DNA of 64,000 nt from an uncultured bacterium (lineage in GTDB: Bacteria; Babelota; Babeliae; Babelales; Babelaceae), in the NCBI GenBank assembly GCA_963713855.1, contig OY970209.1, positions 1,024,001-1,088,000 of the forward strand. The letters are read 5' to 3'. A program made the position numbers and the translations under genes. The stretch's first letter is position 1; every line of letters starts with the position of its first letter. This document shows positions 37 to 63,439 of this stretch, in pieces. Below the pieces are notes generated by a model that did not search any database, had not been told where the DNA came from, and saw only the letters and a list, made by a program, of their open reading frames with translations.

Positions 37-717
37 CTATTTTTTGACGCATTCATTAAACATTTTTTCAACTTCAGACCAGTTGACAACATTCCACCAG
101 TTATCTAAATACTCATTTCTTTTGTTCGTGTATTTAAGATAATACGCATGTTCCCAAACATCTGTGCCTAAAATAGGATTAAGGCCGTTAGTTATAGGGC
201 TGTCTTGGTTAGGTGTTGTTACGATAACCAAATTTCCTTGTGAATCTAATGCAAGCCACGCCCAGCCACTTCCAAATACTTTAAGCGCTGCTTCTAAAAA
301 TTGATTTTTAAATTCTTGTAAGCTTCCAAATCTCTGCGAAATCTCGGCAAGGAGTTTTCCGGTAGGCTGTGTTTTTCGAGGAGTCATCCATTTCCAAAAG
401 AGGGAGTGATTTAAGTGGCCGCCTCCGTTATTTCGTACAGTATTTCGTATATCTGCCGGCAATGTGGGCCACATTTTTACAAGTTCCTCAACACTTTTAT
501 TATAAAGTTCAGGGTGCTTTGCAATTGCCGCATTAAGTTCGCTTACATATTTTGCGTGGTGCTTGTCGTGGTGAATTTCCATTGTTTTAGCGTCAATAAA
601 AGGCTCAAGGGCATTAAAGGCGTAGGGTAAAGGTGGAACGGTAAAGGGTACAAATGTAGTCTGAGCGCATTGAGCGAGTGCTGATGTAAAAAGGTATAAA
701 ATAAGGTATTTCTTCAT
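37..717 (-). CDS. sodA: Superoxide dismutase (Mn/Fe family, probably Mn) with signal-peptide-like N-terminus
   Basis: LPYAFNALEP, MEIHHDKHH, NNGGGHLNH, FGSGWAWL, NQD and DVWEHAYY motifs; RBS aaggag upstream. Confidence 0.95.
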   Translation of the reverse strand: MKKYLILYLFTSALAQCAQTTFVPFTVPPLPYAFNALEPFIDAKTMEIHHDKHHAKYVSELNAAIAKHPELYNKSVEELVKMWPTLPADIRNTVRNNGGGHLNHSLFWKWMTPRKTQPTGKLLAEISQRFGSLQEFKNQFLEAALKVFGSGWAWLALDSQGNLVIVTTPNQDSPITNGLNPILGTDVWEHAYYLKYTNKRNEYLDNWWNVVNWSEVEKMFNECVKK

Positions 718-3983: not shown

Positions 3984-4046
3984 ATGGCCGTGAAAAAATT
4001 GATTATAGTAACGCTATTTCTGGTAGCTGCTTTCTTTATGCTTTAG
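3984..4046 (+). pseudogene. Signal-peptide-only stub MAVKKLIIVTLFLVAAFFML*
   Basis: RBS aagaagga and TATAAT at 3946-3951; its TAG overlaps the stop of the convergent phosphatase gene. Confidence 0.4.
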
Positions 4047-4657
4047 ATAGTGAATTCTCTAAATGAGCCCGTTGGTACTCTGCAAGAATGACCAGTTATT
4101 AATCTACAAAGAACTTTTACATTGGAATCATGCGTAACGACTATAACAGTCCCGTTTTTGTATGTTTTGGTTAGATAATTATAAAAAGCTGTTACTCTTT
4201 TTCTAACCTCATCTTGCGTTTCTCCGCCGTGCTCTTGCATTCTGCGGTCGGAAATGGGGTAAAACGCCTGTCCCTCAAGGTCTCCCGCCTGTCTTTCAGT
4301 AATTCTGTTGTCAATTATTAATTGTTCTTTAATGTCTAATTTTTGGATGAGTATCCGAGCAGTTTGTAGGCATCGCGGTAGGGGAGAGGCAAAAACTGCC
4401 TTTACTGACGACGGAACAATGCCTTCCTCTTCTAATTGTTGAGCCATTTGAATAGCCTGCTGCCGTCCTTTTGGTGTCAAATTCGAGACGACATAGTTTG
4501 GGTGTTTAGGATTTGCATTTCGCGTGTCATCAACGTTGTGTTGTGCCTCACCATGGCGTACAACGATAAGTTTGAGTTCCGCGCTAAGGTTGCTTGTAAT
4601 TGCTGTCATTAAAAGTGCCATTATAGCGGTATACCTTTGCTTCATTTTTAATGTCAT
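4043..4657 (-). CDS. Histidine phosphatase (phosphoglycerate mutase-like) with signal peptide
   Basis: VVRHGEA, LTPKGRQQA, SPLPRCLQTA, E..G..EG, VVTH motifs; RBS aaggag before ATG 4657. Confidence 0.9.
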   Translation of the reverse strand: MTLKMKQRYTAIMALLMTAITSNLSAELKLIVVRHGEAQHNVDDTRNANPKHPNYVVSNLTPKGRQQAIQMAQQLEEEGIVPSSVKAVFASPLPRCLQTARILIQKLDIKEQLIIDNRITERQAGDLEGQAFYPISDRRMQEHGGETQDEVRKRVTAFYNYLTKTYKNGTVIVVTHDSNVKVLCRLITGHSCRVPTGSFREFTI

Positions 4658-4872
4658 TAGCTTGATCTCCTTAAAAAAAGGGGAGAGTAGAAAATAGTGT
4701 TCTTTAAGCATATTCCTATGAAATTGTAACAAATATCAGCGCCAGAATTCAATATTTTTTTGTAGAACTGGATTTATTAAATAAATTGTAGATATATTAA
4801 AAAACATTTGAATGTTAAGTGAATAACAAAGAGCGACTCGAAAATAGTTACGTATATAGCACTACCTAAAAA

Positions 4873-15676: not shown

Positions 15677-15902
15677 AAATCCCTCTGATTGGTATAACAT
15701 ATTTCATTAAATACTATACTAATTTAAATTATAATAAAGCTCTGAGATAAATTTCTTGTTGATGATGCATGGACGCATTGGTTGCGTTTGAGTGATTCTT
15801 CAAACGCGTGATGATTTATGATTCAACTGCTTTGTTACCGATAGAAAAAAGAATATGGCACGGCATTAGAAGCTTGTGCATGATGGCGTGCGCATATCAG
15901 AG

Positions 15903-20403: not shown

Positions 20404-21282
20404 ATGAAAAAGCACGTAACGCTGTTTTTAAGCTTAAGCTGTATGCTTGTAATTCGCACAGAGGAGCACAGTATGGCCACTGAGAAAGAGACTCCTCAAT
20501 GCATTATTCTTAAACTGGGAGGAAGCCTTATTACCCAAAAAGATACCGATAAGGCGGAAATTGCTACGTCATTGCTTAAGGAATTGGTTCAAGAAGTAGC
20601 TCAAGTGTGTGCGGTAAAGCCTATTGAACTCGTTATTGTACATGGAACGGGGTCATTTGGGCACGTACCTGCAAAAAAATATGTTCTACCTTTTTTAGAT
20701 AACCCAAAAGAGCTTTCAAAGGGCATAGCTTTAACAAAGCTGAGTCTGCAAGAGCTTAATTACGCTATTGTTAAGGAGCTTGTTGAAGCTAATATTAATG
20801 CAGTTGCTTTTTCTCCCTCTTCAGCAGTTACTACCAGTAATGGATGCATTCAAACTTTTAACTTGCGGGCTTTAAAGGAGCTGCTTAATAAGGGACTTGT
20901 ACCCGTATTGCATGGCGACTGCGTTGTGGACCTACAAAAAGGCTTTAGCATTTTAAGCAGCGACACCTTAGCAGTGTATCTAGCAGTACAACTTCAAGCT
21001 TCTCGAGTTCTTCTAGCTATGGACTATAACGGCGTTTTTGATCGCGATCCCGCCTCAAAAGAATCAAAAAAAATTGACGTTATGACAAGGGACCAACTTA
21101 TGCTTCTTGAGCATTCAAAAACGCGCGGTACCGACCTTACCGGAGGTATTAAGAAGAAAGTAGAGGAACTTTTCAAACTGTCTTATCACGGTATCGAAGC
21201 TGAAATCATCGGCGGCAAAAACAAAGGTTACCTCAAGAGGGCTCTACTGGGAGAGCGCGGTCTTGGTACACTCGTTCGGTAA
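20404..21282 (+). CDS. Isopentenyl phosphate kinase-like protein (amino acid kinase family) with hydrophobic N-terminal extension
   Basis: LKLGGSLIT.K, IVHGTGSFGH, VPVLHGD.V.D, ILSSD, DLTGGIKKK. Confidence 0.8.
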   Translation: MKKHVTLFLSLSCMLVIRTEEHSMATEKETPQCIILKLGGSLITQKDTDKAEIATSLLKELVQEVAQVCAVKPIELVIVHGTGSFGHVPAKKYVLPFLDNPKELSKGIALTKLSLQELNYAIVKELVEANINAVAFSPSSAVTTSNGCIQTFNLRALKELLNKGLVPVLHGDCVVDLQKGFSILSSDTLAVYLAVQLQASRVLLAMDYNGVFDRDPASKESKKIDVMTRDQLMLLEHSKTRGTDLTGGIKKKVEELFKLSYHGIEAEIIGGKNKGYLKRALLGERGLGTLVR

Positions 21283-24641: not shown

Positions 24642-24883
24642 TACCTTCCTCTTTTTTTCATAAACTGGTCTATCATCTATCATGTAAGCCTCTTGAGTGT
24701 TGGTTATTGTGATGACTTGAAGAGTCTTGAGAATTTGCTGAATGCTATCATTGCAGTCATTATTTGTCAATATGACTTTACCAATATCCCGCTGACTGAA
24801 AAATAGTTATTTTGACATTCGAGCTTTAAAGCCGCATTTTTTTTGCAAAAGACTCTTTTTGCCGCCTCAATCGGGCACTCTTG

Positions 24884-25908: not shown

Positions 25909-27294
25909 ATGCGTAAAGTGTTTTCTATAGCCAGTTTTGGTTTACCTATTTTTATTCTCTTTGCGGCATACGCAAATGGAGCTAGTAAATCCAGTTATTA
26001 TAGAGTCTTGGAGCACCTTGCTGCTTTATCGCAAACATGCCGCACTACTATTCAAAAGGAAGGCAGCGGTGTATTTGTAATAGCCGGCTTTAGCGGAGAT
26101 TTATCAAAACGAAAACTTTTACCGGCACTTTACGAGCTTGTGCATCATGGCTTTAAAGGCGTCATTGTAGGACTTGGGCGATCTGATCTGTCAGTTGATA
26201 AGCTTATCGAAGAAGCCCGCATCTTTATCCCCCGCGTAGATGAGAAAATGCTTTTAAACCTTAGGCAAATGACGCACTATTTTAACACATCAAACCCCGA
26301 AAGCATGTCAAAGGTTTCGGAGTTTATACAAAAGCAAATACAAGAAAGGCGTCTTTTTGATAGGCGGATTTTTTACTTGGCAACGCCATCTGATAGCTTT
26401 TGCCCTTTGACAAAACAAGCTGTGGAGTCAGGTATCATTCAAAAGGGCAATAAGGATCACATTATTGTATATGAAAAGCCTTTTGGGAAAGATCTATCTT
26501 CTGCTCAAGCTGTTAATAAGTGTCTCAACTTATATATTCCACAAGAGCAGCAATACTTGGTAGATCATTATTTGACCAAAACTCTTATCAAATATGCGCC
26601 CCGTCTTGTTAGCTATTTAAGCTCACTTGGTTTTATAATCCACGATGTAGAATTCTTTTTTGACGAGAAGATAGGCATAGAAGGGCGCGGCTCTTTTTAT
26701 GAAGAGGTGGGTGTTCTTAATGACGTTGTACAGAATCATGCTTTGCAAATCCTTGCCACATTTGTTGCCGGAGCAACGCACGCAGCAAAAACAACTTTTT
26801 TGCACTCGCTCCAATTGACCCATGGTATATTTGGTCAATATGACGGCTACCGTAATGAAAAAGATGTAGATCCTTTATCCATCGTGCCAACGTATACGGA
26901 GCTTTTTTTCAAAACCAACCCAGTAAGCTTTCCAATCAGTATAAGAGCGGGCAAAAAACTGTCACGTAAAGCCACTGAGTTGAGAATACGTTTTTCAAAA
27001 CCGCAAGGCAAAGGGTCTGCGCTTCTAACGATTCGTTTGGCGCCTTCAGAGAGCTTGTCTCTCAGAGCACCACTCGTGGATAGTAATCCTAATCTTGCAA
27101 GAGCAACGCTTGATATTACATTTCCCATTAACACTACTGAACCCTATACCGTTCTTCTTTCGCGCCTTATAAGCGGCGATACCAAAATGAGTGTGACGCA
27201 AGAAGAGATAGAAGCTCAATGGCACATTATAGATACGATTCAAAGAGAAGTTTTGCCGTTCATGTTTTATGCGCCAGGTTTTGGAATGCTTTAG
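25909..27294 (+). CDS. zwf: Glucose-6-phosphate 1-dehydrogenase-like protein, divergent, with signal-peptide-like extension
   Basis: GFSGDLSKRKLLPAL, FYLATP, YEKPFGKDL, DHYLTK, GIEGRGSFYE..G...DVVQNHALQ, GQYDGY, RAGK. Confidence 0.8.
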   Translation: MRKVFSIASFGLPIFILFAAYANGASKSSYYRVLEHLAALSQTCRTTIQKEGSGVFVIAGFSGDLSKRKLLPALYELVHHGFKGVIVGLGRSDLSVDKLIEEARIFIPRVDEKMLLNLRQMTHYFNTSNPESMSKVSEFIQKQIQERRLFDRRIFYLATPSDSFCPLTKQAVESGIIQKGNKDHIIVYEKPFGKDLSSAQAVNKCLNLYIPQEQQYLVDHYLTKTLIKYAPRLVSYLSSLGFIIHDVEFFFDEKIGIEGRGSFYEEVGVLNDVVQNHALQILATFVAGATHAAKTTFLHSLQLTHGIFGQYDGYRNEKDVDPLSIVPTYTELFFKTNPVSFPISIRAGKKLSRKATELRIRFSKPQGKGSALLTIRLAPSESLSLRAPLVDSNPNLARATLDITFPINTTEPYTVLLSRLISGDTKMSVTQEEIEAQWHIIDTIQREVLPFMFYAPGFGML

Positions 27295-36229: not shown

Positions 36230-37372
36230 ATGAAGTTGAAAGCGCTCTTTTTTCTTACTTACTGTCTAGCCATTTACGCACAACCCAAGGGCTGTCATGA
36301 GCTCTTGGAGCCTGGAAAAGTATGCCCAGAGCCTAACACAGTTTCTTTACGTGATGAAAGTGACATCTACTGCGTGGTGCTTGCTGGAGGTAATGGTGAG
36401 CGGCTTTGGCCATTGAGCAGAAAAGATAAGCCCAAGCAGTTTCTTTCATTAGATGCACAGGGTTCTATTTTTGAATCCACGCTTGACCGCATGCAAAAGA
36501 TCAAAGGAAATAAGCATTTTTGGGCAGTAACAACTAAAGCACTCTATGAGCCTTTAAAGCAGCTAGCAAAAGATAGGATTGAGCATTACGTCGTTGAGCC
36601 TGCAAGAAGAAACACTGCGCCTGCGATACTGTTAACATGTCTATCAATAGCACAAAAAGATCCCCATGCCCGTGTTATTTTTTTGCCATGCGATCAACAT
36701 GTACCCGATAGTGAGGCTTTTACAAAAACGCTTAATCTGCTTTTAGACGCGCCGTCTATTGGGGGCATTACGCTTATTGGCCTCAAACCAGAGCGTCCCG
36801 CAACGGGATACGGTTACATTAAGTTTGATCCGGCAAAAGAGGGCATTTCTCCAGCGCTCGGTTTTTTTGAAAAACCAACTTTAGCGCGCGCGCAAGAATA
36901 TATGGAATCAGGAAACATGCTTTGGAATACTGGTATTTTCTTTGGTAAAGTCATCGATTTTATCGAAGAGTATCGAAAATATGCACCAGAAGTACTTAAC
37001 TCAGTTGAAGCTTTCTTAAAAGGAGAGGGTATCTATGAGGATGCGCCTAACACTTCTATAGATTATGCAGTTTTAGAGCACAGTAATGCCGTCAATGTAT
37101 TACCAGCGTCATTTGCATGGTCTGACATAGGTAGCATAGTGACTTTTCTCTCGCTTAAAGGTGAGCCATCAGATAGGTCTACTATTGCCATTGATGCACA
37201 GAACAACCTTATTGAAACAAGCAAAAAACTTGTTGCACTCATTGGTGTATCGGACCTTTGCATAGCGGAAACGGATGACGTTCTTATGGTTACTCATTGC
37301 AGTAGAGCCGAAGAAGTAAAGCGTGTTGTAGCCGAGCTTGTCAAGGATGACAAGTATCAAAGGTACTTATGA
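36230..37372 (+). CDS. manC: Mannose-1-phosphate guanylyltransferase with signal-peptide-like extension
   Basis: VLAGGNGERLWPLSR..KPKQF, EPARRNTAPAI, TGYGYI, FFEKP, WNTGIF, SIDYAVLE, WSDIGS. Confidence 0.9.
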   Translation: MKLKALFFLTYCLAIYAQPKGCHELLEPGKVCPEPNTVSLRDESDIYCVVLAGGNGERLWPLSRKDKPKQFLSLDAQGSIFESTLDRMQKIKGNKHFWAVTTKALYEPLKQLAKDRIEHYVVEPARRNTAPAILLTCLSIAQKDPHARVIFLPCDQHVPDSEAFTKTLNLLLDAPSIGGITLIGLKPERPATGYGYIKFDPAKEGISPALGFFEKPTLARAQEYMESGNMLWNTGIFFGKVIDFIEEYRKYAPEVLNSVEAFLKGEGIYEDAPNTSIDYAVLEHSNAVNVLPASFAWSDIGSIVTFLSLKGEPSDRSTIAIDAQNNLIETSKKLVALIGVSDLCIAETDDVLMVTHCSRAEEVKRVVAELVKDDKYQRYL

Positions 37373-42000: not shown

Positions 42001-42321
42001 TGTAATATAATTAGCAGTCGCATGATACAAGCCATCGGAAGAATACGCTGATGCGTATACAAGGGATGTCGGGCCCACAGGAAGAGAATATGAAATTCCG
42101 TTGTATAAAACTCCCCCTGCTACTTTGTACATTGAAACATCGTTTGAATTGGCGGTAGCAAAATAAGAGCCATCGGGTGAATACTGTCCATCAGTAGGCC
42201 ACATAGAGGCGCCCGGTAAAGGGTATCTAACCTCGTTAAGAGCTTCTGTCCAAGAGCTCGTAAAACAAATAATCCAAAAACTTATAAAAACAGACATGTT
42301 TAAAGCACGAGAAAACAACAT
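39007..42321 (-). CDS. Large beta-propeller repeat surface protein (21 repeats); paralogue 3, interrupted by two compensating frameshifts
   Basis: ORFs 40381..42321 and 39007..40242 are in the same frame, while repeat 14 lies in the frame of 40133..40411; shifts at about 40420 and 40251; tail YKYVYRPRAVLGSVNFGPD matches paralogue 1. Confidence 0.85.
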
Positions 42322-48509: not shown

Positions 48510-49061
48510 ATGTCTATTGCATTAATTCTCGGCGGTGCGCTTATTCTGCTCGTACTTTGGTTTATTAGTGGTTATAATAGGCTTATTAAGCTCAAGGGCT
48601 TTCTTGATGAAGCATGGAGCGGTATTGACGTGCAGCTTAAGCGCCGTAACGACCTTATTCCCAATTTAGTGGCTACGGTAAAACAATATAGCCTCCATGA
48701 AAAGGGGGTTTTGGAGTCTGTGGCGAATGCGCGGTCAGCTTCGCTACATGCAACAAACATTGAGCAAAAATCCCAGGCTGAAGGTGACCTAAGTCGTTCA
48801 TTGAAAACGTTATTTGCCGTTGCCGAAAACTATCCAGACCTTAAAGCCAACCAAAATTTCTTGAGTTTACAGGACGATCTTTCAAAACTTGAGTCGGACA
48901 TCCAGCTTGCGCGAAGATATTATAATGGTGCTGCACGTAACTATAATATCACTATCGGTACATTCCCTATGAGCGTCATTGCATCGCTTGCTCGATTTGG
49001 TAAGGCTGATTACTTTGAAGCGTCGCAATCTGAGCGTGAACAGCAACGGGTTACTTTTTAA
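48510..49061 (+). CDS. lemA: LemA family protein
   Basis: YNRL, AWSGIDVQLKRRNDLIPNLV, AVAENYPDLKA, ARRYYN, FP...IA. Confidence 0.95.
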   Translation: MSIALILGGALILLVLWFISGYNRLIKLKGFLDEAWSGIDVQLKRRNDLIPNLVATVKQYSLHEKGVLESVANARSASLHATNIEQKSQAEGDLSRSLKTLFAVAENYPDLKANQNFLSLQDDLSKLESDIQLARRYYNGAARNYNITIGTFPMSVIASLARFGKADYFEASQSEREQQRVTF

Positions 49062-50807
49062 TGACGCGATTTTTTTTAGGGATTCTTCTTGTAAGCACGC
49101 TAACCATTAGCGGCCAAGAACGCATACTCTCTTTCGATAGCCATATCACGATTAATACGGATTCTTCTGTTGACGTGCAGGAAACAATAACGGTCTTTGC
49201 GCAGGGCCAGAAAATAGTACATGGCATCATGCGTGAATTTCCAACACGCTATAAAGACCGCTATGGGCATGAGTATCAAGTAGGCTTTGCTCTTCAAGAA
49301 GCTCGCGTAAAAAATGAACAGAGCAAACTGCAAAAAGTTCCCGTAAAAACTGTTAAAAGAGCAAACGGTATTGTTCTGTATCTCGGAAACCCAGATAGAC
49401 GGCTGAGGCCGGGTATCTATACATACGTAATTCGCTATTCAGTAACGCGTGTCTTAGGCTTTTTTAAAGAGTATGACGAGCTTTATTGGAATGTAACCGG
49501 TAATGGCTGGAGATTTAGCATCGATGAGGCACGAGCGGTTATTAAGCTTCCTCAGGGTGTTAATGCAGAATCTCTTGTTTTTGATGCCTATACAGGGCCT
49601 TTTGGTACGCAGGGCAAAAATTTTACTACAACGAAGGATGCTGTTGGAAATCTTGTATTTCAAACGCAGCGTGCTCTAACACCTTATCGAGGGATTGACG
49701 GTAGCAGTTTCCTGGCCTAAAGGATTTGTGCGTGAACCTGGATTAGCCGCAAAGCTCATGTCGTTTTTAAGTGATAATATTTCTATTTTTCTTCTTCTGA
49801 TAGGGCTTATTCTGGCCTTTGCGCGGTATTTTTTAGCTTGGCTTGATGTAAGGCGAAGAAATCGGCCCGGTACTATTATTCCCTTATTTGAGCCGCCATT
49901 GGATCCTAAAACCGGAACTCCTTTACTGCCATGCGAAGTGCGCTACGTATACCGTAAAAAGTACGATGCTCAAACTTTATCCTCTGAGATAGTTAATTGT
50001 GCCGTGCACGGTTATCTTACAATTGACTACAAATCGGGTTTTTTTGAAGGTACTTATACTCTCCAAAAGACTCATCACAAAGTGCCGGATAAAGCACATC
50101 CTCTTCATGTTCTGATTCTTGACGATTTATTTGCCCGGAGGCAGCAGCTCGAGCTTACGCAATATTACGCTCGCGTACTTACGATTGTTGTTGAAGAAGT
50201 AGTAAATTGGCTTAAGGAGAATCAGGCTGGTACTTTTGCAACCAAGAGCGGTGTCATTTTTAGTGGTATCTTGATATCTGCGCTTTCCCTTATTGCGGGA
50301 GTTATGCTTATGTCGGGATCTGTCGGCCTTCTTTTCTTTGTACTGATCGTAGTTCTTATCTTCGTCAATTATCTATTTGCGACACGGTTGACGTATTATA
50401 CGCAAGAAGGCCGAAAGCTTGCGGATGAAATTGAAGGCTTTAAGCTTTTTTTAGAAACTGCAGAATCACCACGCCTAGCTATTGTAGGAACACCACCGAC
50501 CAAGACTCCCGAATTGTATGAAAAATACTTGCCGTACGCAATGGCTTTAGGAGTTGAGGAGCAGTGGACGCGGCAATTTACTCCCCTATTTAATATGCTC
50601 GAACGGAGGGGAAAACCTTATTATCCGTTGTGGTATTCTAACCCTCGTATGACAGCATTTAACCCGGCTACATTTAGTTCCGGCCTTAATAAATCACTAA
50701 ATTCTGCTATATCATCCTCGGTGCGTGTACCAGGAACAGTATCAGGCTCACGCGGCGGCGGTTCTTCAGGCGGCGGAGCTGGTGGCGGTGGCGGCGGTGG
50801 CTGGTAA
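49061..50807 (+). CDS. DUF2207 domain membrane protein, split by a one-base insertion near 49688
   Basis: ERILSFDS.I, DELYWNVTGNGW.F.I, YEKYLPYAMALGV, Gly-rich GGGGGGW end; removing C49688 gives YEGLTVAVSWPKG. Confidence 0.88.
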
Positions 50808-53982: not shown

Positions 53983-54753
53983 TTAAGCGTTGGATCCCGA
54001 ACCAAAATTTAAATAATGATTTTGGTAAAGCCATACAATGACTAATACCGCTAAGGTCGCAGATAGGATTTTTGTAATGTTTGCTTGATTAGCTTCTCGA
54101 ACTTCTCTTTGACGATCTCGACGTTCCATCCGTCTTTCGCGCCGTTCTCGCTGTGCCTGAGCTGCTTCAAAGTTTGCATTCCACACTTCTTCTATCTCGA
54201 CAAGAAGTTCTTCTCTTTCAGAAGCATAGGCTTGCTGATTTGCGATGGCTCTGAGTAATTGCAATGGAGTTTCTGGTACCTCAGCAGTGGTGGCTTTAGG
54301 GTCTGCTCCAGCTACAAGAAGACCGTATATACCATCCCAATCTCCTACCATTGCAACCGCCTGCAAAGGTGTTGCTCTTATGATTGATGGGCCTCCCTCA
54401 GGGTAGACGCGAAAGTCACCCAGGTTAAAAAATGGCGCAGGGCTATTAATATCACCATATCGTCGTATATGTTTTTGCAAAGCCTTCTTATACTTGCCAG
54501 CTTGGCCAGTTAGTGAATCAGCAGCTACAGAGACAATATCCTCGGCCTGAACGTCATGGAAGGAGGCGCTTCTAGTTACATATATTCTGCCGTCGGGTAA
54601 AACAAGTCGGATTTGTTTGTTGCCGCATACAAATCTATCGTGGAGAAGGTAGCTAGTTGATCGGGGGGCGCTCCATATGGTTTTACGCTCCATACCTGTT
54701 GCTATAAAAGATAAACCGAGAGCACTTGTAAAAATAATAGTAATTATTTTCAT
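53983..54753 (-). CDS. Secreted/anchored hypothetical protein with one ankyrin-like unit, copy A
   Basis: Signal peptide; ATPLQAVA..G...LLVAGAD; Arg/Glu-rich coil; C-terminal TM. Confidence 0.75.
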   Translation of the reverse strand: MKIITIIFTSALGLSFIATGMERKTIWSAPRSTSYLLHDRFVCGNKQIRLVLPDGRIYVTRSASFHDVQAEDIVSVAADSLTGQAGKYKKALQKHIRRYGDINSPAPFFNLGDFRVYPEGGPSIIRATPLQAVAMVGDWDGIYGLLVAGADPKATTAEVPETPLQLLRAIANQQAYASEREELLVEIEEVWNANFEAAQAQRERRERRMERRDRQREVREANQANITKILSATLAVLVIVWLYQNHYLNFGSGSNA

Positions 54754-54928: not shown

Positions 54929-55696
54929 CTAGCCGAAGCTTGACGTAGTTGTATGATGAGAAATCAAATGCATTATCAAACCGAGCAGTATAGCAAGTAA
55001 GACTGGATTTATCTGCTCCCGCTGTTGCACAATTGCTCGCCGCCTGACTCGTTCTTCTCTTCTTCTTTGTTGTACCTCCGGCATTACCGGCGGTTCGCGT
55101 CTTTGTTCTCTTAATAGCCTAGCTGATTCAAGCGTTTCATCCCAGGCGGCTCTTACATCAGCACCAAGGCTTGAGCTTGATTCTTGATTTTGTGCGTTTG
55201 CTGCTATGAGTAATAGCTCCAATGGAGTTTCAGGAACATCACTAGTTGTCGCTTGCGAGTCAGCGCCTTCCACAAGTAATCCATGTATGATATTGAGATT
55301 GCCTAGCACTGCGGCTGCTTGAAGTGGTGTTGCCATGAGCGGCCTCAAACCTCCTTCAGGATACTCATTAGCACTTGCAAGTGTAAAAAAGGGCGCCGGT
55401 TCGTTAATGCCGCCGTACCTACCGATATGTCTTGCAAGAGCTCGCTCAATTTCTACGGCGTTGTGAACTGATCGTGGATCAGACACTGCCGCCATGTCTA
55501 TGGCACGGTGCATTGTTCTTGCCAAATATCTGCGTCCATCAGGTAAAATGAGCATTGCCTTTTTTTGATCACGTACCAATCTAGATTGGTTGAGTAAATA
55601 TACTTGCTTGGGTGCAACCCATTTTTTATCATGCATAGCATTAGCCACAGAGGCTATACCAAGAATACTTATACAGACGGTGAAGAATATTTTCAT
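54929..55696 (-). CDS. Paralogue of 53983..54753, copy B
   Basis: Shared W.AP, LPDGR.Y, HI.RYG.IN.PAPFF.L, YPEGG, ATPLQA, ATT..VPETPL.LL. Confidence 0.75.
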   Translation of the reverse strand: MKIFFTVCISILGIASVANAMHDKKWVAPKQVYLLNQSRLVRDQKKAMLILPDGRRYLARTMHRAIDMAAVSDPRSVHNAVEIERALARHIGRYGGINEPAPFFTLASANEYPEGGLRPLMATPLQAAAVLGNLNIIHGLLVEGADSQATTSDVPETPLELLLIAANAQNQESSSSLGADVRAAWDETLESARLLREQRREPPVMPEVQQRRREERVRRRAIVQQREQINPVLLAILLGLIMHLISHHTTTSSFG

Positions 55697-56071: not shown

Positions 56072-59000
56072 TTAATAGGGTGTTTGCAACAAGTGTGCCA
56101 ATTGAGCACTTTCTTTGTAATCAAGCTGAGCCAAGGAAGCTCCCGTGTATTCATGGAAATTCTCCATGAGGCTGGCTAATAAAAAATTGAGCAGTGCATC
56201 ATCATGAAGCGCAGTGTATTCTTTAAAAATGTGCCGTAGTTCGAGAATCCAATTTTTAAGGTATGGAATGGTGTGTCTATTTTTTTTATGGGCACCAGCT
56301 AAAATTGGAATGAAGGATTGGTATGGTGTTTTATACATATTTTCGCGTAATATTTTGTCGAGTGCTTTGACTTTTTTGATGCTTGTGAGTATATGGGTTT
56401 GAGCACTTTTAGGAATGTCATGCGGATTTTTTAAGCTATGATACTGTGGTGCATTTTTTTCTAAAGAAGTTATTGAAGCATTTTTGATAATTTTTAAGAT
56501 TTCTGAGGTTGAAAATTCCTGGTAAAAGCCTTCTTGTGCGCCCATTTTTTCTGAATCTAGTGCAAATTTCTTAAGCTCGCTATTTGATTTTCCAAGAGCT
56601 ACAAAAAGCGTTTGCAATGGTGTTTTTCTATCGATAGCCTCGCGTGCCTTTTTTAGCACGTCATAGTCTATCTTTGATTGCCCATCAGTTATTACGACAA
56701 TATTTGCTCCATCAAATAGGCCGGCATTTGCTATAAGTTCCATTGCTTTTAAAAGAAAAGCTTGTATATCCGTTCCACCGCGGGTAGTTTTAAAAAGGTC
56801 TCGGTTTTTAAGGATATAAAGTGCTTCTTGAGCGTTAGTGATTTTAACCGGTTGTCCAATTTTGTTGTCAAAGGGAACAAGGACCACTTTGTGGCGATGA
56901 TGGCCCTGAGGCGAAGTATCGCTCAATGCTCTGCTTATAAATGCCAAAATAAGGGCTTCTTGGAATGTTTCTAACTCTCCTTGCATGCTGGCTGACGTAT
57001 CAAATCCGACAATTGTTATGCGCTCTTCTTCTTTTACAGGTCCTTTTTCTTTAGTGAGTTCTTTTTTGCGCTTAGAAAGCATGTATGCTTGGCCGCGAGC
57101 TATGCTTTTTAATACGTCTTGACCGGGTCTTGCTATTACTTTATTCCAATCGTTAAGGCGGTCAACAGGCACAAGGTCTCTACCGCGTTTAGGAGCATCT
57201 ACTTGCCATTTTTTACTCAATGAATACTTTGGCTTTTTTGAGCCCTGAAGTATGAAATTGCTGTGCTTATAGACAGCGTTAATAAGAAGCTTATTGTTAA
57301 GTTTTCCTGCTTTTAGGTCATCAGCTAAACGATTGATATCAATAGTTCCGGGCTTTGTAAGCTCATACTCTTGGCTTACAGCTTGCCAAATAAGCGGTGG
57401 GCAAGTTTCTTTGAACTCTTCAACAAGTGTCGTGTCTAACGGCGCGTAATCTTTAAGCCCGTCAAGTAGTTTGAGCACGGCTTTAAGCTCCTTGACAATT
57501 TCCTCTAACACATTTGTTGTAGTAGTATCTATTTTGACGTAGCTTTGGCAGTGAATGAGTATGCTTATCATTTGCATAATCTCTTTATATGTTGTGGTAA
57601 TTTTTTGCTCAAAAATTTTCCCGTTTAGGTTTTTGAGCCATTCATAGAGTGTAGGGTGCGGTTTTGTATGCAGAAGCTCACCTTCTTCTGTCTTTATTTT
57701 TTGCGCATCGTTTGCTTTATTGAACAAGCTTTTTACGGCATTTAATCGTGCAAGAATCGCATCTGAGGAAGAAAGGGGGTTAAAAGTGTACGTGCATAAA
57801 AGCTCGATAAGGTAATGCTTTAGTGGATTTATAAGGCCGTTGTTGTCATGGTGTACTGTCGGATAATCTTCTTGCCTCGCGTCATCATTTTGATCTGTGC
57901 GTTCTGTGTTTTTATTAAGCTTGCTCTTTTCAGGCTCTACATTGGATTCCTGTTGTTGGGCAGGACTTGCTGGTGCTGGATCATAGGTATGCCAAGCGTC
58001 GTCATAAAACACTTCTACCCACATGTGGGCGTTATTGGGTAGTTCGACATAACTTGTATCGCTATCTTGCTGCGCTTTATACCCGGCAACTACTCTGCAA
58101 GGAATTGCAAACACGTCCCTTATAATGCTTACCATGATATATGCTGCCATATCACACTGGAAAGAGCCACTTTTTAAAGCGGATATGGGGTCTTTTTCGG
58201 GTTTGGCATTCTTAATATAGGTATATTGTGTTGCAATATGGTCAGCTATGGCTTTTGCGATTGTTGCTGGGTGATCTGTGTCCTTGTTGTAGGCGTTAAT
58301 TATCCCTATTTGTATATCGTCGGGCCATTCGTGTACGTCAAAGCCTACGCGTTGAGTTGCAATTTCGTGCTGGAGTTGGGTGAGAGTATTTGCTTTTGGT
58401 TTTTCGAGGGTTATTGTTACCGTTGCGTACTCTTTTTTAAGTATGACGTCATATGAGCCATTGCCTCTATCTTCGACGTAGACATCAGGTTCGAGGGTTT
58501 TTGCTGGTATATAGCCGCTTGGTATTAATAGCCTAAGCAATTTTGCACCCGCAGTTTTAACGGTGAGTGTTTTTGATTCAGCTAATTCATAGGATTTTGG
58601 GGCGGCATCCCAAAACCGCTTACGTGCTTGAAAAACGTGAGATCGATTGCGGGCTATCGAGGTGTACGTTGCATGGTAAAAATAGGCAGTGTTGAAATTT
58701 GCTTCGGCTATACGCTGTTTTGGGCCTTCTATATCGGTGCTGTCTTTTGTGTGTGGAGAATACTCGTCACTAGGCATGTTCAGCTTGTCATTGTGTTCTT
58801 CGAAGGGATGTTCGCCTTTTGGGCATGCTTTAAAATGCTCAATGTATTCGTCAAGTGCTTGGAGAGCTAAAACGTTTGATTGAAGATCTTTAAGCTGTGT
58901 TTCTTTGCTTTTTAAAAGCATAAGTGCATCATCGATAATTGCATCGACAAGCTTAGTATTGAATGTTTTTGCCCGAATTTGTTTAAGTTCGTTTTGTATT

Positions 59001-59251
59001 TTAAACAGTGGAGAGCCGATGCACTCATCCTCTATAGAACGCTTTAAGAGATTTATATAGATACGATTTGCTTCATCGATTGTTATAGCAAACCGGAAAG
59101 GATTTTTGTATATGCCGAGTCTCTCTTGATAGTCGTGTAAGGCTTTCAGGGTAGTTTTTTTTAATGCTTGATATTCGCCACATGGCAGGGTTAGGGATAG
59201 GTTTATCCACAGCATTGCCGGTATGATGTACTTATTCGTCTTCATTTTCAT
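56072..59251 (-). CDS. Transglutaminase-like domain plus vWA (ViaA-like) fusion protein with signal-peptide-like N-terminus
   Basis: FQCDMAA...IPCRVVAGY...AHMWVEV...WHTYDP (Cys-His-Asp triad); MIDAS FDTSASM...GGTDI...IVVITDG. Confidence 0.85.
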   Translation of the reverse strand: MKMKTNKYIIPAMLWINLSLTLPCGEYQALKKTTLKALHDYQERLGIYKNPFRFAITIDEANRIYINLLKRSIEDECIGSPLFKIQNELKQIRAKTFNTKLVDAIIDDALMLLKSKETQLKDLQSNVLALQALDEYIEHFKACPKGEHPFEEHNDKLNMPSDEYSPHTKDSTDIEGPKQRIAEANFNTAYFYHATYTSIARNRSHVFQARKRFWDAAPKSYELAESKTLTVKTAGAKLLRLLIPSGYIPAKTLEPDVYVEDRGNGSYDVILKKEYATVTITLEKPKANTLTQLQHEIATQRVGFDVHEWPDDIQIGIINAYNKDTDHPATIAKAIADHIATQYTYIKNAKPEKDPISALKSGSFQCDMAAYIMVSIIRDVFAIPCRVVAGYKAQQDSDTSYVELPNNAHMWVEVFYDDAWHTYDPAPASPAQQQESNVEPEKSKLNKNTERTDQNDDARQEDYPTVHHDNNGLINPLKHYLIELLCTYTFNPLSSSDAILARLNAVKSLFNKANDAQKIKTEEGELLHTKPHPTLYEWLKNLNGKIFEQKITTTYKEIMQMISILIHCQSYVKIDTTTTNVLEEIVKELKAVLKLLDGLKDYAPLDTTLVEEFKETCPPLIWQAVSQEYELTKPGTIDINRLADDLKAGKLNNKLLINAVYKHSNFILQGSKKPKYSLSKKWQVDAPKRGRDLVPVDRLNDWNKVIARPGQDVLKSIARGQAYMLSKRKKELTKEKGPVKEEERITIVGFDTSASMQGELETFQEALILAFISRALSDTSPQGHHRHKVVLVPFDNKIGQPVKITNAQEALYILKNRDLFKTTRGGTDIQAFLLKAMELIANAGLFDGANIVVITDGQSKIDYDVLKKAREAIDRKTPLQTLFVALGKSNSELKKFALDSEKMGAQEGFYQEFSTSEILKIIKNASITSLEKNAPQYHSLKNPHDIPKSAQTHILTSIKKVKALDKILRENMYKTPYQSFIPILAGAHKKNRHTIPYLKNWILELRHIFKEYTALHDDALLNFLLASLMENFHEYTGASLAQLDYKESAQLAHLLQTPY

Positions 59252-60722
59252 GGCTCAATGCGATTTGTCGCTCAATGTCGTACACCTCTTCGAGTTCGTT
59301 TTGATTGGTCATACATTCGAGTAGTGCGTAATATTCTGCTGAATCTTTGAGGATATTTTGGTGCTTTTCGATAGATTTAACAAATAATTGCTTAAATCGT
59401 TCTTGTTCTTCTAAAAGATACTCTACTGTTGTCTTTTCTCTTTTATCTTTTGGATAGTAGTGGTTAGATGTGAAAAATGCGCCGAAATCGATATCTATTT
59501 GGGTTTGGTTATTGTTTATTGGAAAGACGAGTTTTGTAACACCGAAAGAGACGGTTGTTAGGACAAGGTAGGCTCGCCAAAGCGAGAAGGGGCCTACTGG
59601 ATATCGGTTATGTGGAAGGCTTTTAAGTGTATTTTCTAAAGCGTCTATATCACTTAGCAAGCTTGAGGTTAAAAGATCAAAGAAGACCGACATAAGTATG
59701 ACATCACGCATTTTTTCTCTTAAGCGTTCGGTATATTCTGCTGTAGGATAATAGGGATCTTGTGTGTCTTTGCTGGAGTCTCTTTCTTCTTGGGTTTCGA
59801 TAGCAAGAATAGTTTCTTTTCTCAATAAGTTGCTAAACTCACGTAATAGGCTTAAAAACTCTTCATTAGGTCTTACTATAAGGTAAGCGAGAGTTCTTAA
59901 TTCTTGCCAGTCAAGCGGATTGGCTGTAGTATTTTCTTTTTTTTGTGCATTGAAAGCCGCGTCAAGTTCGGCAAGATAGTTATAGTCCAGTTCAGCCTGG
60001 TCTTCTGGTGCAAGCCAGTTTGGAATAAAGGCGATTGTGGTAAATCTGTTTAATAGTGCGGCGGCAGTGGAGCGTTGGCCGTTTTCGGTAAACTGTTGAT
60101 ATATTTCGTAGATATTGGAATTGCTTGTCGAAAGTATAGTTTCGAGTTCTGATATGATGACTTTGTTACCTGCCAATATTTTTCGTTCAATTAGTAGACT
60201 TAATAGCGCAGCTAAAGTTGCTGGATTTCCCTTATCGATTTCATCTATGAGTGCAACGCGAAAGTCTGCAAGAGACCCTTTAGTGTTGACTTCAAAGCGC
60301 CCTTCTTTAGCGGCAGTAAAATTTTGTCCGCCAACAAATACTTGTTCGTTCATCATCTGGTGCATCTGTAACTCGAAAGCGATCTCGTTATCTTGATCAT
60401 AGAGCCACTTAATGAATTTTGATTTTGCTCCCCCTGGTGGCCCATGAAGGAACATGTTTCCTTCCATAAGCCGGGTGATATGAAAAGCATGGTACACGGA
60501 ATCGAATTGTTTGAACTCTTTTTGAAAAAGAGCTTTTCTTCTACGTGCAATAGCTTGTGATTCTTGTAAGATTTTTTTTGAATGGTCTGTTAGCCCTTGA
60601 TAGTTTCCCTCGGTATCTCTTTTTATGTACTTTGTTGTATCTATTGAATCTAAAGCTGCTGCGCGCAACACCAGTAGTGCGCCAATCAAGCTTAATTTAC
60701 TAAAAGACGCGTGAATATTCAT
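59232..60722 (-). CDS. MoxR-family (RavA-like) AAA+ ATPase with signal-peptide-like N-terminus
   Basis: Walker A MFLHGPPGGAKS, Walker B ALIDEIDK, NPATLAALL.LL.ER, sensor STSN, Arg finger ALLNRF; overlaps the start of the vWA gene. Confidence 0.87.
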   Translation of the reverse strand: MNIHASFSKLSLIGALLVLRAAALDSIDTTKYIKRDTEGNYQGLTDHSKKILQESQAIARRRKALFQKEFKQFDSVYHAFHITRLMEGNMFLHGPPGGAKSKFIKWLYDQDNEIAFELQMHQMMNEQVFVGGQNFTAAKEGRFEVNTKGSLADFRVALIDEIDKGNPATLAALLSLLIERKILAGNKVIISELETILSTSNSNIYEIYQQFTENGQRSTAAALLNRFTTIAFIPNWLAPEDQAELDYNYLAELDAAFNAQKKENTTANPLDWQELRTLAYLIVRPNEEFLSLLREFSNLLRKETILAIETQEERDSSKDTQDPYYPTAEYTERLREKMRDVILMSVFFDLLTSSLLSDIDALENTLKSLPHNRYPVGPFSLWRAYLVLTTVSFGVTKLVFPINNNQTQIDIDFGAFFTSNHYYPKDKREKTTVEYLLEEQERFKQLFVKSIEKHQNILKDSAEYYALLECMTNQNELEEVYDIERQIALSHENEDE

Positions 60723-60873
60723 AAAGATCCTCGTCCGGCGCTGCGTACGCTGCATGCTTAACCTTCTTGCTTTCAAGAACGTAAGGATTTTATTTTTGTG
60801 CCGGCTCTCTAGTTTATCAATTTACTTATCTAAGCCAACTTCTTTTTTAGAAAACGCGCATTTTTAAACGATA

Positions 60874-62505
60874 TTATGTTGGTTCTAAGTGAATTTTGAG
60901 TGAAGATTGTAAAGATATATTTTCTAGTTGGTGTCGTTGATCATGGTCAACATACAAGTCAGTTAATGAAGTGATAGATGCTAGAGGTTGTAGGCTTTGT
61001 ATTGGATTGTGGGCAATACGGACTTCTGTCAGGTGTTTGAGTGATGAGAGTGGTGAGATGTCTTCTAGTTGATTATCGCTTAGATCAATTATTTTTATAT
61101 TTAGGTTTTTAAGTGGCTCAATGTTTTTGATTTTGTTGTTAGCCAATTTTAGCTCTTTTAAGTTTATAAGGTAGCGCAGTGGTGAGCTATCTATTATGGT
61201 GTTATTGCTTAGATTGAGTTTTTCAAGTTTTTCGAGTAAGCCTATGGGTTCTATGCTTTGTATTTTGTTACTATTAGATAATGTTAATGATGTCATTCGT
61301 CTCATGGTTGCAAAAGGCGTTTTGCCTGCCATTGTATATAGTGCGCTCAAAGTATTTTGTATTCTTTGTGGATACTTGTCTTTGTGGTTGATTATAACGC
61401 GCAGATAGTCATCTTTATGTATAGGAATGGCTAAAGAATCATCCCATCGCCATTCGTTATCATTTTGGAATAAGTCGTTTTCGAATTGTAAAGTATATCT
61501 TTGGGTCTTTGCATTACTGGCTTTTTTGTGCCTGACGAGCCTAAATCCTAAGGTTTTTCCAGTCGTGTCTTTGTAATAGATAGGTCTTACTACATTTTCG
61601 AGAGTGGTTTTACCCATTACAGCATAAGCTGAACTGAAGACAAGGCCGCTATACAGTTTTTCACTTTTTTTTGTGTAGAGCGTGGATGCGTCTCTTGTAA
61701 ACTCCCAGATTGTTCCTGTCTCCTCATCATTATCTGTGGTAGCGAATGTTGTTTTAAATGCTTTTAGTTTTGAGGTTTTTGAAGGCCATTGTTTTCCTAC
61801 GTTTGTTTGTAAGAAAGCCTCATATTCATTAATGGATGGGAGCATATAGGTATATTTTTCATTGTTTTGATTCATTTTACCAACAAGCTCTTCGATGGTG
61901 GTTAAAGAGGCGTAGGTCATGAAGTTATTTGGCTCCATAGTGATCGTTTTGTAATCTATTGTTATCTCTTGTGTGCCTTTGTGTTCGAGCTCTTCTGGCA
62001 ATTGGAGCATTATGGTTGCCCATTGGTATTCAGTGATTGGTGTTTCTGTTATTTCTATATCATCATCGATGTTAAAGTTTTCTTGGTTGAGGCTTTGATA
62101 CATTCCTGCGGGTATACGGGTAAAATGCATTGGTTTGTATAGGTCTTGGGTGTTTTTATGGGCCTTATCGCGCAATTGACTTTCCTTTTGAAATACCTTG
62201 AGCATTTTTTGGCACCATTTTTTTAGCTCTTTTTTATCTATTTTGTGCTTATAGAGCTCTACAATTTTATTGAGCTGCTTCCAATAGATAAATACGGTAT
62301 GAGAAGCATATGCTTGGGCTTTAGGTATTGGATTATAGAGGATTTGTTTTTCTAGTATTTTTTGAATGCTTTCTGTTTTGAGGATGTCTTTATTTGCTAA
62401 GCTTTCTAGGAATAGAAGGACTTTTTCGGTTTGTGGTTTGTTTGGTCCCGTTTTGGCAGTTGAAACAATGATAAGGCTTAGTATGAGAGCTGCGATAAGC
62501 TTCAT
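60874..62505 (-). CDS. FGE-sulfatase (SUMF1)-fold domain plus internalin-like LRR protein with signal peptide
   Basis: MHFTRIPAG, ETPITEYQW, Y.LPSINEYE, GTIWEFT, LGFRLVR; LxxLxLxxNxIxxxxPL repeats. Confidence 0.8.
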   Translation of the reverse strand: MKLIAALILSLIIVSTAKTGPNKPQTEKVLLFLESLANKDILKTESIQKILEKQILYNPIPKAQAYASHTVFIYWKQLNKIVELYKHKIDKKELKKWCQKMLKVFQKESQLRDKAHKNTQDLYKPMHFTRIPAGMYQSLNQENFNIDDDIEITETPITEYQWATIMLQLPEELEHKGTQEITIDYKTITMEPNNFMTYASLTTIEELVGKMNQNNEKYTYMLPSINEYEAFLQTNVGKQWPSKTSKLKAFKTTFATTDNDEETGTIWEFTRDASTLYTKKSEKLYSGLVFSSAYAVMGKTTLENVVRPIYYKDTTGKTLGFRLVRHKKASNAKTQRYTLQFENDLFQNDNEWRWDDSLAIPIHKDDYLRVIINHKDKYPQRIQNTLSALYTMAGKTPFATMRRMTSLTLSNSNKIQSIEPIGLLEKLEKLNLSNNTIIDSSPLRYLINLKELKLANNKIKNIEPLKNLNIKIIDLSDNQLEDISPLSSLKHLTEVRIAHNPIQSLQPLASITSLTDLYVDHDQRHQLENISLQSSLKIHLEPT

Positions 62506-62575: not shown

Positions 62576-63439
62576 TTAGCTTTTTAGTGCGCCGTGTTCT
62601 TTTAGTTGACGTAGTAACCCGCGGATTCTTTTTTCTTTAAAATGTATAGCGGTCATGCCTAATTTACGCGCTGCGTGTATGTTTTCTTCCTGGTCATCAA
62701 TAAATATGCATTCTTGTGGATTTAATTTTGCTTTATCAAGCAGCTCGTGGAAGAAGGCGGGATCGGGCTTTACCTTTTTTTCGAATCCTGAGATGAAGAT
62801 ATTTTCTTTTTTAAAATGACGGAATATGTGCCTCAATGAGTCATCGTAATACATGAGATCAAATGAATCTGGGTCCCAGTTTGAAGCGATGTATGATTCG
62901 ATATCTGGGTTATTCGCGCATTTTTGAAGAACTATTCGCATGAGTGGCAGTGGTTTCATATTTTTGGCATAGAGTTTTGGAGAGAACAACAATTTAAGTG
63001 ATTTTTGTAAAAATTGCTTTTCACTGTCGGTCCAATATTCTTTTTGTTGATCGAGGAGTCTGAATGATTCTTTGAGTGTTTCTTTGCTTGAAATTTTGCC
63101 TTCTAGCCAGTCGGTCATGCGTACTGGTAGTAATCGTCCGCCTGGTTCTTTTACTCCTATCTCATTTACGCCGGAATAATCTTCTTCTAGAACATTAAAT
63201 AATCTTTCGGTCAGAAGGCCTTGCATGCCTTTGCCGTGCTGAAGATAGAGTTTCATGCATTGACCGAGACCAAGATAATTGGCAATGCTTAGCTTTCTGG
63301 GCTTTACGAGCGTATATCCAAGGTCCCAGATGATTGCTTTTTTCTTGATCGTGCTGGTATTTCCAATCCCGCTGATTATGGCACATGGTCCGCTTATTAA
63401 CGCGCAGGTCAACACAACGTTCGTCACTATTTTTTTCAT
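62576..63439 (-). CDS. HAD-IA family hydrolase with signal peptide
   Basis: IIWDLGYTL, IASNW, KPDPAFF, CIFIDDQEENI.AARKLGM. Confidence 0.87.
   Translation of the reverse strand: MKKIVTNVVLTCALISGPCAIISGIGNTSTIKKKAIIWDLGYTLVKPRKLSIANYLGLGQCMKLYLQHGKGMQGLLTERLFNVLEEDYSGVNEIGVKEPGGRLLPVRMTDWLEGKISSKETLKESFRLLDQQKEYWTDSEKQFLQKSLKLLFSPKLYAKNMKPLPLMRIVLQKCANNPDIESYIASNWDPDSFDLMYYDDSLRHIFRHFKKENIFISGFEKKVKPDPAFFHELLDKAKLNPQECIFIDDQEENIHAARKLGMTAIHFKEKRIRGLLRQLKEHGALKS

Follow-up and report, generated by a model that had tools for sequence, protein, structure and literature searches.

A rare MoxR ATPase and transglutaminase-vWA locus with tagged, variable third components and predicted export leaders in an uncultured Babelota bacterium

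The 64,000-nucleotide stretch of contig OY970209.1 analyzed here (the window; assembly GCA_963713855.1, an uncultured bacterium of the Babelota) harbors a three-gene locus encoding a MoxR-clade AAA+ ATPase, a fusion of a transglutaminase module with a von Willebrand factor A domain (TG-vWA) and a third-gene product termed the binder. The trio is a conserved unit and appears to be an undescribed form of MoxR-vWA ternary system. The ATPase and TG-vWA are referred to as the core, and the constant, helical N-terminal domain (NTD) of ~100 residues in the binder as the tag. An earlier note on this DNA had described the third gene as an FGE-fold protein with leucine-rich repeats (LRRs); both folds were supported for the window, but they are only the local version, as the third component consists of a constant helical tag, overlooked in that note, followed by a swappable C-terminal module. 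The genome of the window (G000) is a single contig of 1.52 Mb and is 91% complete. The features of the locus are listed below.

60874..62505, minus strand: binder, 543 aa; leader, helical tag, non-catalytic FGE-type C-lectin fold and internalin-like LRRs
62446..62505, minus strand: predicted Sec-type leader of the binder, aa 1–20 (hydropathy test)
62134..62445, minus strand: constant ~100-aa alpha-helical tag, aa 21–124 (no Pfam family over cut-off)
61519..62133, minus strand: FGE-type C-lectin fold, about aa 123–329, no cysteine (homologues and predicted model)
60895..61305, minus strand: LRRs, aa 401–537 (LRR_4), probably preceded by a cap
59232..60722, minus strand: MoxR-clade AAA+ ATPase, 496 aa; RavA/bpMoxR-like core and family-specific C-terminal half
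60651..60722, minus strand: predicted Sec-type leader of the ATPase (hydropathy test)
60420..60443, minus strand: Walker A, GPPGGAKS (motif and conservation)
56072..59251, minus strand: TG-vWA fusion, 1059 aa; leader, helical N-domain, TgpA-like module, disordered linker, helical region, vWA and C-terminal helical domain
59183..59251, minus strand: probable leader of TG-vWA, the weakest of the three (score 1.88; in register with P0002)
57965..58783, minus strand: TgpA-like beta-sandwich and transglutaminase module, aa 157–429, triad C366/H409/D424 (superposition on 6g4h)
56462..57034, minus strand: vWA domain with intact metal ion-dependent adhesion site (MIDAS; D751, S753, S755, T827, D856) (conservation and model)

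As the earlier note had it, the three open reading frames (ORFs) are co-oriented, and the ATPase and TG-vWA genes overlap, by 20 nt (59232–59251). The binder gene sits 151 nt upstream of the ATG at 60722, which is most likely the ATPase start rather than TTG 60776; the resulting protein of 496 aa has the same length as database entry P0011. A promoter scan yielded 19 sites against 20.8 expected by chance.

The distribution of the unit was evaluated in 261 genomes of the window's phylum and in 401 genomes sampled evenly across the phylum to which genome G261 belongs. Among the 261, TG-vWA was found only in G000, G008 and G009, and the full-length family ATPase and full-length tag in the same three; 13 weak ATPase matches, none better than E 1e-13 and the 7 inspected being ordinary MoxRs, were set aside, as were 7 weak partial tag matches, none of which was better than E 9e-6 or covered more than 55 of 101 positions, with three running across stops. 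Among the 401, a strong ATPase match occurred in 12 (7 with a single full-length ATPase and 5 with a tandem double one) and the tag in 6, all of which fall among the 7 with the single full-length form. No genome in either sample contained a full-length tag without the core, and all 10 TG-vWA genomes tested have the tag, in 1–28 copies. Scanning species genomes brought up 14 loci, most with Bdellovibrionota or Myxococcota in their titles; 13 were analyzed and one apparent duplicate was dropped. The ATPase gene lies directly upstream of the TG-vWA gene in 13/13 loci, and 11/13 also have a tag-bearing gene; the remaining two loci are cut off by the end of the contig and come from genomes with 7 and 3 tag genes at other sites. 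The three-gene neighborhood recurs in Babelota and in genomes labelled Bdellovibrionota or Myxococcota, the third gene with both lectin fold and LRRs being the version of the three Babelota. The system is rare and patchily distributed, being present in 3/261 and 12/401 genomes. A metagenome contig scan with a single-protein query confirmed 0 of 372 candidates.

Two kinds of fusion were also observed. The TG-vWA homologue P0109 carries the tag in place of the N-domain (E 1.8e-12), and the tandem ATPase of locus L057, beside TG-vWA, ends in a binder-type lectin domain (Pfam 1.2e-29), as does that of L058 by inspection of the sequence. Co-occurrence and these fusions link the parts as a unit. The tag itself was not detected within the tandem-ATPase fusions.

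Features of the three proteins

The ATPase matched two Pfam families over the cut-off, bpMoxR (1.7e-14, best) and AAA_5. Its match to the NCBIfam RavA model (2.9e-10) reached 39.8 bits, far below the cut-off of 681, and covered profile positions 67–205, i.e., the AAA+ core only. The closest solved structure to this core by sequence was RavA (3nbx, E 8.7e-17). The intact RavA-type motifs reported in the earlier note are present, as GPPGGAKS, DEIDK, SN and NRF, and the Walker K, D and E, the sensor N and the finger R were each found in 66/66 rows of the alignment (conservation was counted over non-gap rows of alignments of 66 ATPase and 90 TG-vWA homologues). By its Walker A/B, sensor-1 and arginine-finger motifs and the profile match, the protein can be assigned to the MoxR clade of AAA+ ATPases, with formation of a hexameric ring and ATP hydrolysis predicted. 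In a quick tree with a poorly resolved backbone, the ATPases of the window, G008 and G009 grouped in one clade of 13 rows (SH-aLRT 100) among rows labelled Bdellovibrionota or Myxococcota, a position which fits acquisition by transfer without proving it. In the sister clade (L056–L060), two MoxR domains occur in one leader-bearing chain of about 900–1415 aa beside TG-vWA; a lectin domain is fused to the end of two of these chains, and an ankyrin protein is encoded downstream at one locus. L019 contains two ATPase genes in tandem. L011 (G668) is a short contig from a bin labelled Altimarinota without a GspD match; its ATPase groups with Bdellovibrionales-labelled rows, and it is possibly misbinned.

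TG-vWA matched Transglut_core (3.6e-12) and, below the cut-off, VWA_2 (2.4e-4); its match to the NCBIfam ViaA model (1.6e-4) gave 21 bits, far below the cut-off of 500. The fold was predicted confidently, with a pLDDT (predicted local distance difference test) of 88.6 and a pTM (predicted template modelling score) of 0.59. In this model, aa 157–429 superposed on the periplasmic domain of Pseudomonas TgpA (6g4h) with Z 18.4 and a root-mean-square deviation (rmsd) of 4.5 over 245 aligned residues, aa 741–925 superposed on vWA domains with Z about 16, and the stretch on the C-terminal side of the vWA domain was all helical with pLDDT mostly >90. The Cys-His-Asp triad pointed out in the earlier note is kept family-wide (C366 80/83, H409 83/86 and D424 83/86 rows). 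The ViaA-like MIDAS of that note (DTSAS, GGTD, ITDG) is likewise present, its residues being kept in 84–85 of 85–86 rows. The Cys-His-Asp module can hence be placed, from sequence and model, in the transglutaminase-like superfamily with its papain-like fold, its activity being predicted from the residues. The window protein contains no membrane-length hydrophobic segment, the best 19-mer scoring 1.59. The homologue P0107 has a degenerate MIDAS motif and an intact transglutaminase triad.

The window binder matched LRR_4 (1.7e-24) and gave no Pfam FGE match of its own. The FGE assignment is based on PF03781 in homologues and on the predicted model of the middle domain, whose best structural matches were TvpA, PvdO and CarF (Z 14.0–14.6), with TvpA (2y3c) at the top (Z 14.6, rmsd 3.7, 171 aligned). 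The catalytic motif of FGE involves cysteines within the FGE domain. The sole cysteine of the window binder is C98, outside the lectin-fold domain, and because that domain contains no cysteine, its sequence identifies it as a binder fold and not an FGE enzyme.

Following the leader, every third gene encodes the common helical domain of ~100 residues, which was well predicted as five helices. This tag matched no Pfam family over the cut-off; it gave no clear structural match (best rows Z ≤5.7, with the tag taken within a longer model), and in the ESM Atlas it fell in unnamed clusters only, with a low recognition score. No profile similarity was found between the tag and any of seven TG-vWA regions (hhalign probability ≤0.38%), and homotypic docking on TG-vWA was rejected. 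The C-terminal modules were surveyed by Pfam scanning of 46 neighbor proteins, covering part of the tag proteins. They comprise the lectin fold alone, lectin with LRRs (the three Babelota), an RCC1 propeller (L013, L014, L016 and L017), a PQQ-like propeller (L054 and L055) and unannotated modules that appear propeller-like by eye (L019 and L062). Tag copies range from 1 in G000 up to 28 domains per genome, and chains of 2107 and 3404 aa bear several tags. In a ten-gene array of G262, the tags were 80–89% identical with a nonsynonymous to synonymous rate ratio (dN/dS) of 0.07–0.12, a rough estimate as synonymous sites were near saturation, with no ratio >1; the 20 columns before the last strand were 15% identical. 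In G008, insertion-sequence-like genes separate and interrupt binder genes (L006:1681–8082), and a binder gene of G009 is broken into two ORFs (L007:14722–16413).

The lectin fold, its similarity to TvpA and the concentration of variation just before the last strand recall the variable proteins of diversity-generating retroelements (DGRs), such as TvpA and Mtd. Unlike these, the binders are diversified as paralogue arrays. A reverse transcriptase (RVT_1) was not matched in G000, G008 and G262, three of five carriers tested, and was matched in G009 and G442; owing to its absence from the former three, binder diversity there is attributed to duplication. The identification of the binders as DGR targets was rejected on the lack of an RVT_1 match in G000 (91% complete), no search for a template repeat having been made.

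Relation to described systems

The linked MoxR and vWA core and a conserved third component with a variable part are shared with the MoxR-vWA ternary systems in general. The FGS (C-lectin) and propeller modules and the bpMoxR match of the ATPase are in agreement with the systems described by Kaur et al. (2020, PMC7159879), which include VMAP, iSTAND, FtsH and beta-propeller classes. In the first three of these classes, VMAP, an inactive STAND or FtsH forms the third component and effectors lie on the C-terminal side of the vWA domain (PMC7159879). No Pfam match to VMAP, iSTAND or FtsH was obtained in the window proteins, 46 scanned neighbors or 30 TG-vWA homologues. In the beta-propeller class, the vWA component strictly has a C-terminal beta-propeller, the third component shows a variable N-terminus, a membrane segment and C-terminal TPRs or a propeller, and the P-loop is often GXXXTAKS (PMC7159879). 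In contrast, an all-helical region follows the vWA domain here, the third component has a constant N-terminus and a variable C-terminus, and the P-loop reads GPPGGAKS. For TERNS3/iSTAND2, a separate gene has been described in which variable effectors are joined to a helical vWA-L domain (Kaur et al., 2021, PMC8195603). The tag, which is also helical, encoded by a separate gene and joined to a variable part, may be comparable; it has no Pfam match over the cut-off.

By sequence and predicted model, the system appears to lack the defining features of the described ternary classes compared, namely, a propeller on the C-terminal side of the vWA domain and VMAP, iSTAND or FtsH. Further differences were observed. 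The vWA domain shares one chain with a transglutaminase, which lies N-terminal to it, and lacks an effector or propeller on its C-terminal side; the carriers are small-genome parasites and Bdellovibrionota-type bacteria and not multicellular ones; and all parts carry predicted Sec-type leaders, whereas the main texts of the two surveys never use the term "signal peptide" (0 occurrences; PMC7159879, PMC8195603). The design found here is a MoxR-vWA pair with a Cys-His-Asp module and a constant-tag, variable-binder family, which suggests a receptor, an enzyme and a remodeller in a ternary layout.

The AAA+ core, closest to RavA among solved structures, and a MIDAS-containing vWA partner encoded by the adjacent gene are reminiscent of RavA-ViaA; however, neither protein gave a full-length equivalog match, and leaders, a transglutaminase and binders are present. 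A MoxR protein, a vWA-like partner and a transglutaminase module resembling the TgpA periplasmic domain are also shared with MoxR-DUF58-transglutaminase operons. These operons contain a DUF58 gene and a membrane-embedded TgpA. In the present system, the transglutaminase and vWA domains form one soluble chain, the ATPase has a leader and the binder family is polymorphic; no DUF58 match was obtained in the window proteins or the scanned TG-vWA homologues, and the window TG-vWA has no multi-pass membrane domain. The system is neither RavA-ViaA nor a DUF58-TgpA operon. Esr, an Actinomycetota epibiont-sensing system, likewise has a single cluster with MoxR, vWA and transglutaminase genes and one for an exported propeller sensor of variable sequence, but a kinase, a phosphatase and an FHA protein relay its signal inward (bioRxiv 10.64898/2026.09.08.750141), none of which is a conserved neighbor here (one ABC1 kinase, in L016 only). 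The three window proteins gave no PADLOC match, and no defined system was found to match. In line with the earlier note, which knew of no account of this combination, no description of it was found in literature searches, outside which most subscription papers lay; the neighborhood source data of PMC7159879 may bear on novelty.

Export, ATP supply and possible function

The earlier note held that all three proteins start with hydrophobic leaders. Leaders were scored by a home-made heuristic (an uncharged 10-residue window of mean hydropathy ≥1.9 inside the first 40 positions), by which the window ATPase (2.83) and binder (3.22) pass. The closest TG-vWA homologue, P0002, has a clear leader in register with the window protein. 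Across the families, the heuristic was satisfied by 56/64 ATPases, 85/95 TG-vWA proteins (hits of 950–1500 aa) and 81/96 binders, including 54/56 binders at the loci; six of the eight failing ATPases look N-terminally truncated. A positive n-region accompanied the leader in 54/56 ATPases, 79/85 TG-vWA proteins and 61/81 binders. Among the controls, 0/18 housekeeping proteins of G000, 74/1324 internal windows and 0/3 distant RavA-like hits passed. Seven ordinary MoxRs of the window's phylum have charged N-termini, two of them passing via an internal helix before Walker A. All three proteins thus very probably cross the inner membrane. A cysteine closely following the leader, often as CxxxL/F, occurs in 82/96 binders, 74/95 TG-vWA proteins and 34/64 ATPases; it possibly marks the proteins for export or processing, and in the window protein it is not a lipobox. 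The earlier note overlooked that leaders are not special to the locus in G000, in which a leader-bearing AAA ATPase, P-loop kinase, MutS-like protein, isopentenyl-phosphate kinase, Zwf and ManC (picked for having leaders) are encoded elsewhere.

The periplasm is regarded as lacking ATP. Full-length ATP/ADP translocases (best E 7e-170 or lower) were found in 4 of 24 carrier genomes and divergent ones in the 3 Babelota; 2 had weak partial matches and 15 had none. Owing to these full-length or divergent translocases, a eukaryotic host is likely for seven carriers; it is not indicated for the remaining ones. G000 has divergent translocases and is rich in ankyrin proteins and leader-bearing proteins, and the window's bacterium is a probable intracellular parasite of protists. 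Intracellular energy parasites typically have such a translocase; as most non-Babelota carriers do not, action in the cytoplasm of a eukaryotic host is not a safe assumption for the whole family, and prey contents or an unusual periplasm are possible ATP sources for other carriers, and an ATP transport system in Bdellovibrio has been cited (PMC13689555). Full-length translocases and RCC1 binders occur in the same four carriers. Such eukaryote-style repeats in binders (LRRs here, RCC1 there) are the strongest hint so far on the origin of the ATP.

The system may be a modular, exported protein-modifying machine acting inside a host or prey cell, a tentatively preferred reading that agrees in part with the exported sensor-remodeller-enzyme machine proposed in the earlier note. 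The three proteins would cross the inner membrane by Sec and then exit the cell, probably by type II secretion or else in vesicles, for a compartment with ATP: the protist cytoplasm in Babelota and translocase-bearing carriers, and prey contents in predators. There, as suggested by the architecture, the variable C-terminal module would recognize a target and the constant helical tag would dock the binder on the core, by analogy with F-box receptors. The Cys-His-Asp module, judged by its residues, could then cleave, deamidate or cross-link the presented target, while the MIDAS would grip a client peptide and the MoxR ring spend ATP to unfold or release it, resetting the complex. The last step is modelled on known MoxR-vWA pairs, in which a peptide is captured at the MIDAS and remodelled with ATP (PMC7159879). 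In favor of this reading are the co-occurrence and fusions of the parts, the constant and variable portions of the binders, the retained catalytic residues and leaders, the type II secretion components of G000 (two GspD secretins, GspE and GspC) as an export route, the leaders on further nucleotide-dependent enzymes of G000 and the coincidence of RCC1 binders with full-length translocases. A further extension, that the system is a fully secreted bacterial analogue of SCF-type ligases with one ATP-powered core, up to dozens of tag-sharing receptors, Sec and type II delivery and the victim's ATP, is rather doubtful. If true, it would describe an injected multi-subunit AAA+ effector machine that cuts, deamidates or cross-links chosen proteins in protist or prey.

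Several observations weigh against action inside another cell. Esr, the one tested system with MoxR, vWA, transglutaminase and a variable sensor, acts on the producer's own surface (bioRxiv 10.64898/2026.09.08.750141), and TgpA, the closest structural relative of the enzyme module, is matched through its periplasmic domain. The leader test is home-made; the window TG-vWA just misses its threshold (1.88 versus 1.9), and the database calls this gene from M13 (P0001). A similar test was passed by 489/890 soluble ORFs of G000, a count inflated by uncertain starts, and the figure for Chromulinavorax is 44% (PMC6561590); with about half of the soluble ORFs leader-bearing, a leader says little about a special role in G000. 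GspD-like matches are widespread (23/24 carriers) and have no discriminating power. No convincing translocase was found in 17/24 carriers, and no tag was detected alongside the core in G316 or at the tandem-ATPase loci. The carriers are uncultured, and the destination is one that we infer.

TvpA and other variable proteins with the C-lectin fold are located at the cell surface, and the TgpA match is periplasmic. Both would suit a system that stays in the producer's periplasm or surface, in which the transglutaminase cross-links or processes binders via the tag, the MoxR-vWA pair chaperones assembly with ATP present in the periplasm of energy-scavenging bacteria, and the outcome is a displayed repertoire of adhesins or sensors for host or prey recognition. 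Such envelope display would apply equally to carriers without translocases, and the variable propeller sensor of Esr is released to the supernatant when the transglutaminase is deleted (bioRxiv 10.64898/2026.09.08.750141). It nevertheless requires periplasmic ATP; no lipobox or membrane anchor was seen in the three window proteins, no Gln or Lys column of the tag reaches 45%, and the other leader-bearing nucleotide-dependent enzymes are left unexplained unless periplasmic nucleotides are general here. Taken together, envelope display is considered unlikely.

An extracytoplasmic defence or conflict sensor, in which binders detect molecules of phages or rival microbes and the ATPase sets the threshold for peptidase release, a role suggested previously for the MoxR-vWA ternary systems, would account for the patchy distribution and diversifying binders and for the three-part logic with FGS and propeller modules in common with Kaur et al. 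(2020, PMC7159879). The same ATP problem arises, however, and besides the lack of PADLOC matches no nuclease, TIR or caspase effector was found among the 46 scanned proteins, which makes this role improbable. Another proposal is that the leaders are uncleaved anchors or vestiges and that the ATPase, at the cytoplasmic face, readies TG-vWA and the binders for export, as in the MoxR-DUF58-TgpA operons. Characterized MoxR proteins are, to our knowledge, cytoplasmic, and 15/56 ATPase leaders reach a 19-residue hydropathy of 2.0 and could span the membrane. Yet the positive n-region of the ATPase leaders and the small residues at −3/−1 in 55/56 (strict Ala at −1 in 36/56) predict an N-in/C-out orientation and cleavage, and the ordinary MoxRs of the phylum differ in their charged N-termini; the proposal appears quite improbable. 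That the binders are independent secreted proteins merely clustering near the MoxR/TG-vWA pair would fit the many binders in arrays away from the core and the G316 core, but the two kinds of fusion and the absence of any genome with full-length tag and no core make it highly improbable. Under the tentatively preferred action inside a host or prey cell, a catalytically intact AAA+ family that keeps its signal peptide across three phyla would imply ATP-driven machines sent into other cells; the alternative would be a periplasm with usable ATP. The constant-tag, variable-binder design could offer a handle on host and prey recognition by uncultured Babelota and Bdellovibrionota-type bacteria and, potentially, a programmable protein-modification tool.

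Neighboring genes and other genomic observations

The features lying outside the three-gene locus are given below.

L036:7382..16460 (= G000:C1:253381..262459): cluster for type II secretion, encoding a pair of long GspD secretins of 972 and 1003 aa as well as GspC and L/M-like proteins
Window 20404..21282, 25909..27294, 36230..37372, 4043..4732, 37..717 and 62576..63439: leader-bearing, normally cytoplasmic enzymes
G000:C1:1099943..1101412, 1093474..1094127, 1519026..1521017 and 979276..980754: leader-bearing, normally cytoplasmic enzymes

A Walker-A-like string had hinted at a fusion of secretin and ATPase, an idea that was discarded. Elsewhere in the phylum (L066–L072), a leaderless ordinary MoxR (324–426 aa as called) lies directly upstream of a gspC-like gene, assigned by eye, in 7/7 loci; in G000, ABC-transporter genes precede gspC, without that MoxR. 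The leader-bearing, normally cytoplasmic and mostly nucleotide-dependent enzymes also include a histidine phosphatase, superoxide dismutase, HAD and phosphomannomutase; the 18 housekeeping proteins have no leader. A leader-bearing HAD gene (62576–63439) adjoins the locus upstream and was dismissed as part of the unit, not being a conserved neighbor across the analyzed loci.

An expanded leader-bearing repeat family with a propeller-like "SYxLPxGS..." unit, often with a C-terminal hydrophobic segment, occurs at window positions 9289–12585, 13912–15700, 21330–24770 and 39007–42321. The genes at 53983–54753 and 54929–55696 encode two leader-bearing paralogues, each with one ankyrin-like repeat and a hydrophobic tail at the C-terminus, and related copies lie elsewhere in the genome. 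By eye, apparently split genes were noted at 49061–50807 (a membrane protein after a lemA-like gene), 5640–6976 (erythromycin-esterase-like) and 39007–42321 (the propeller repeat), which are apparently frameshifts or assembly errors.

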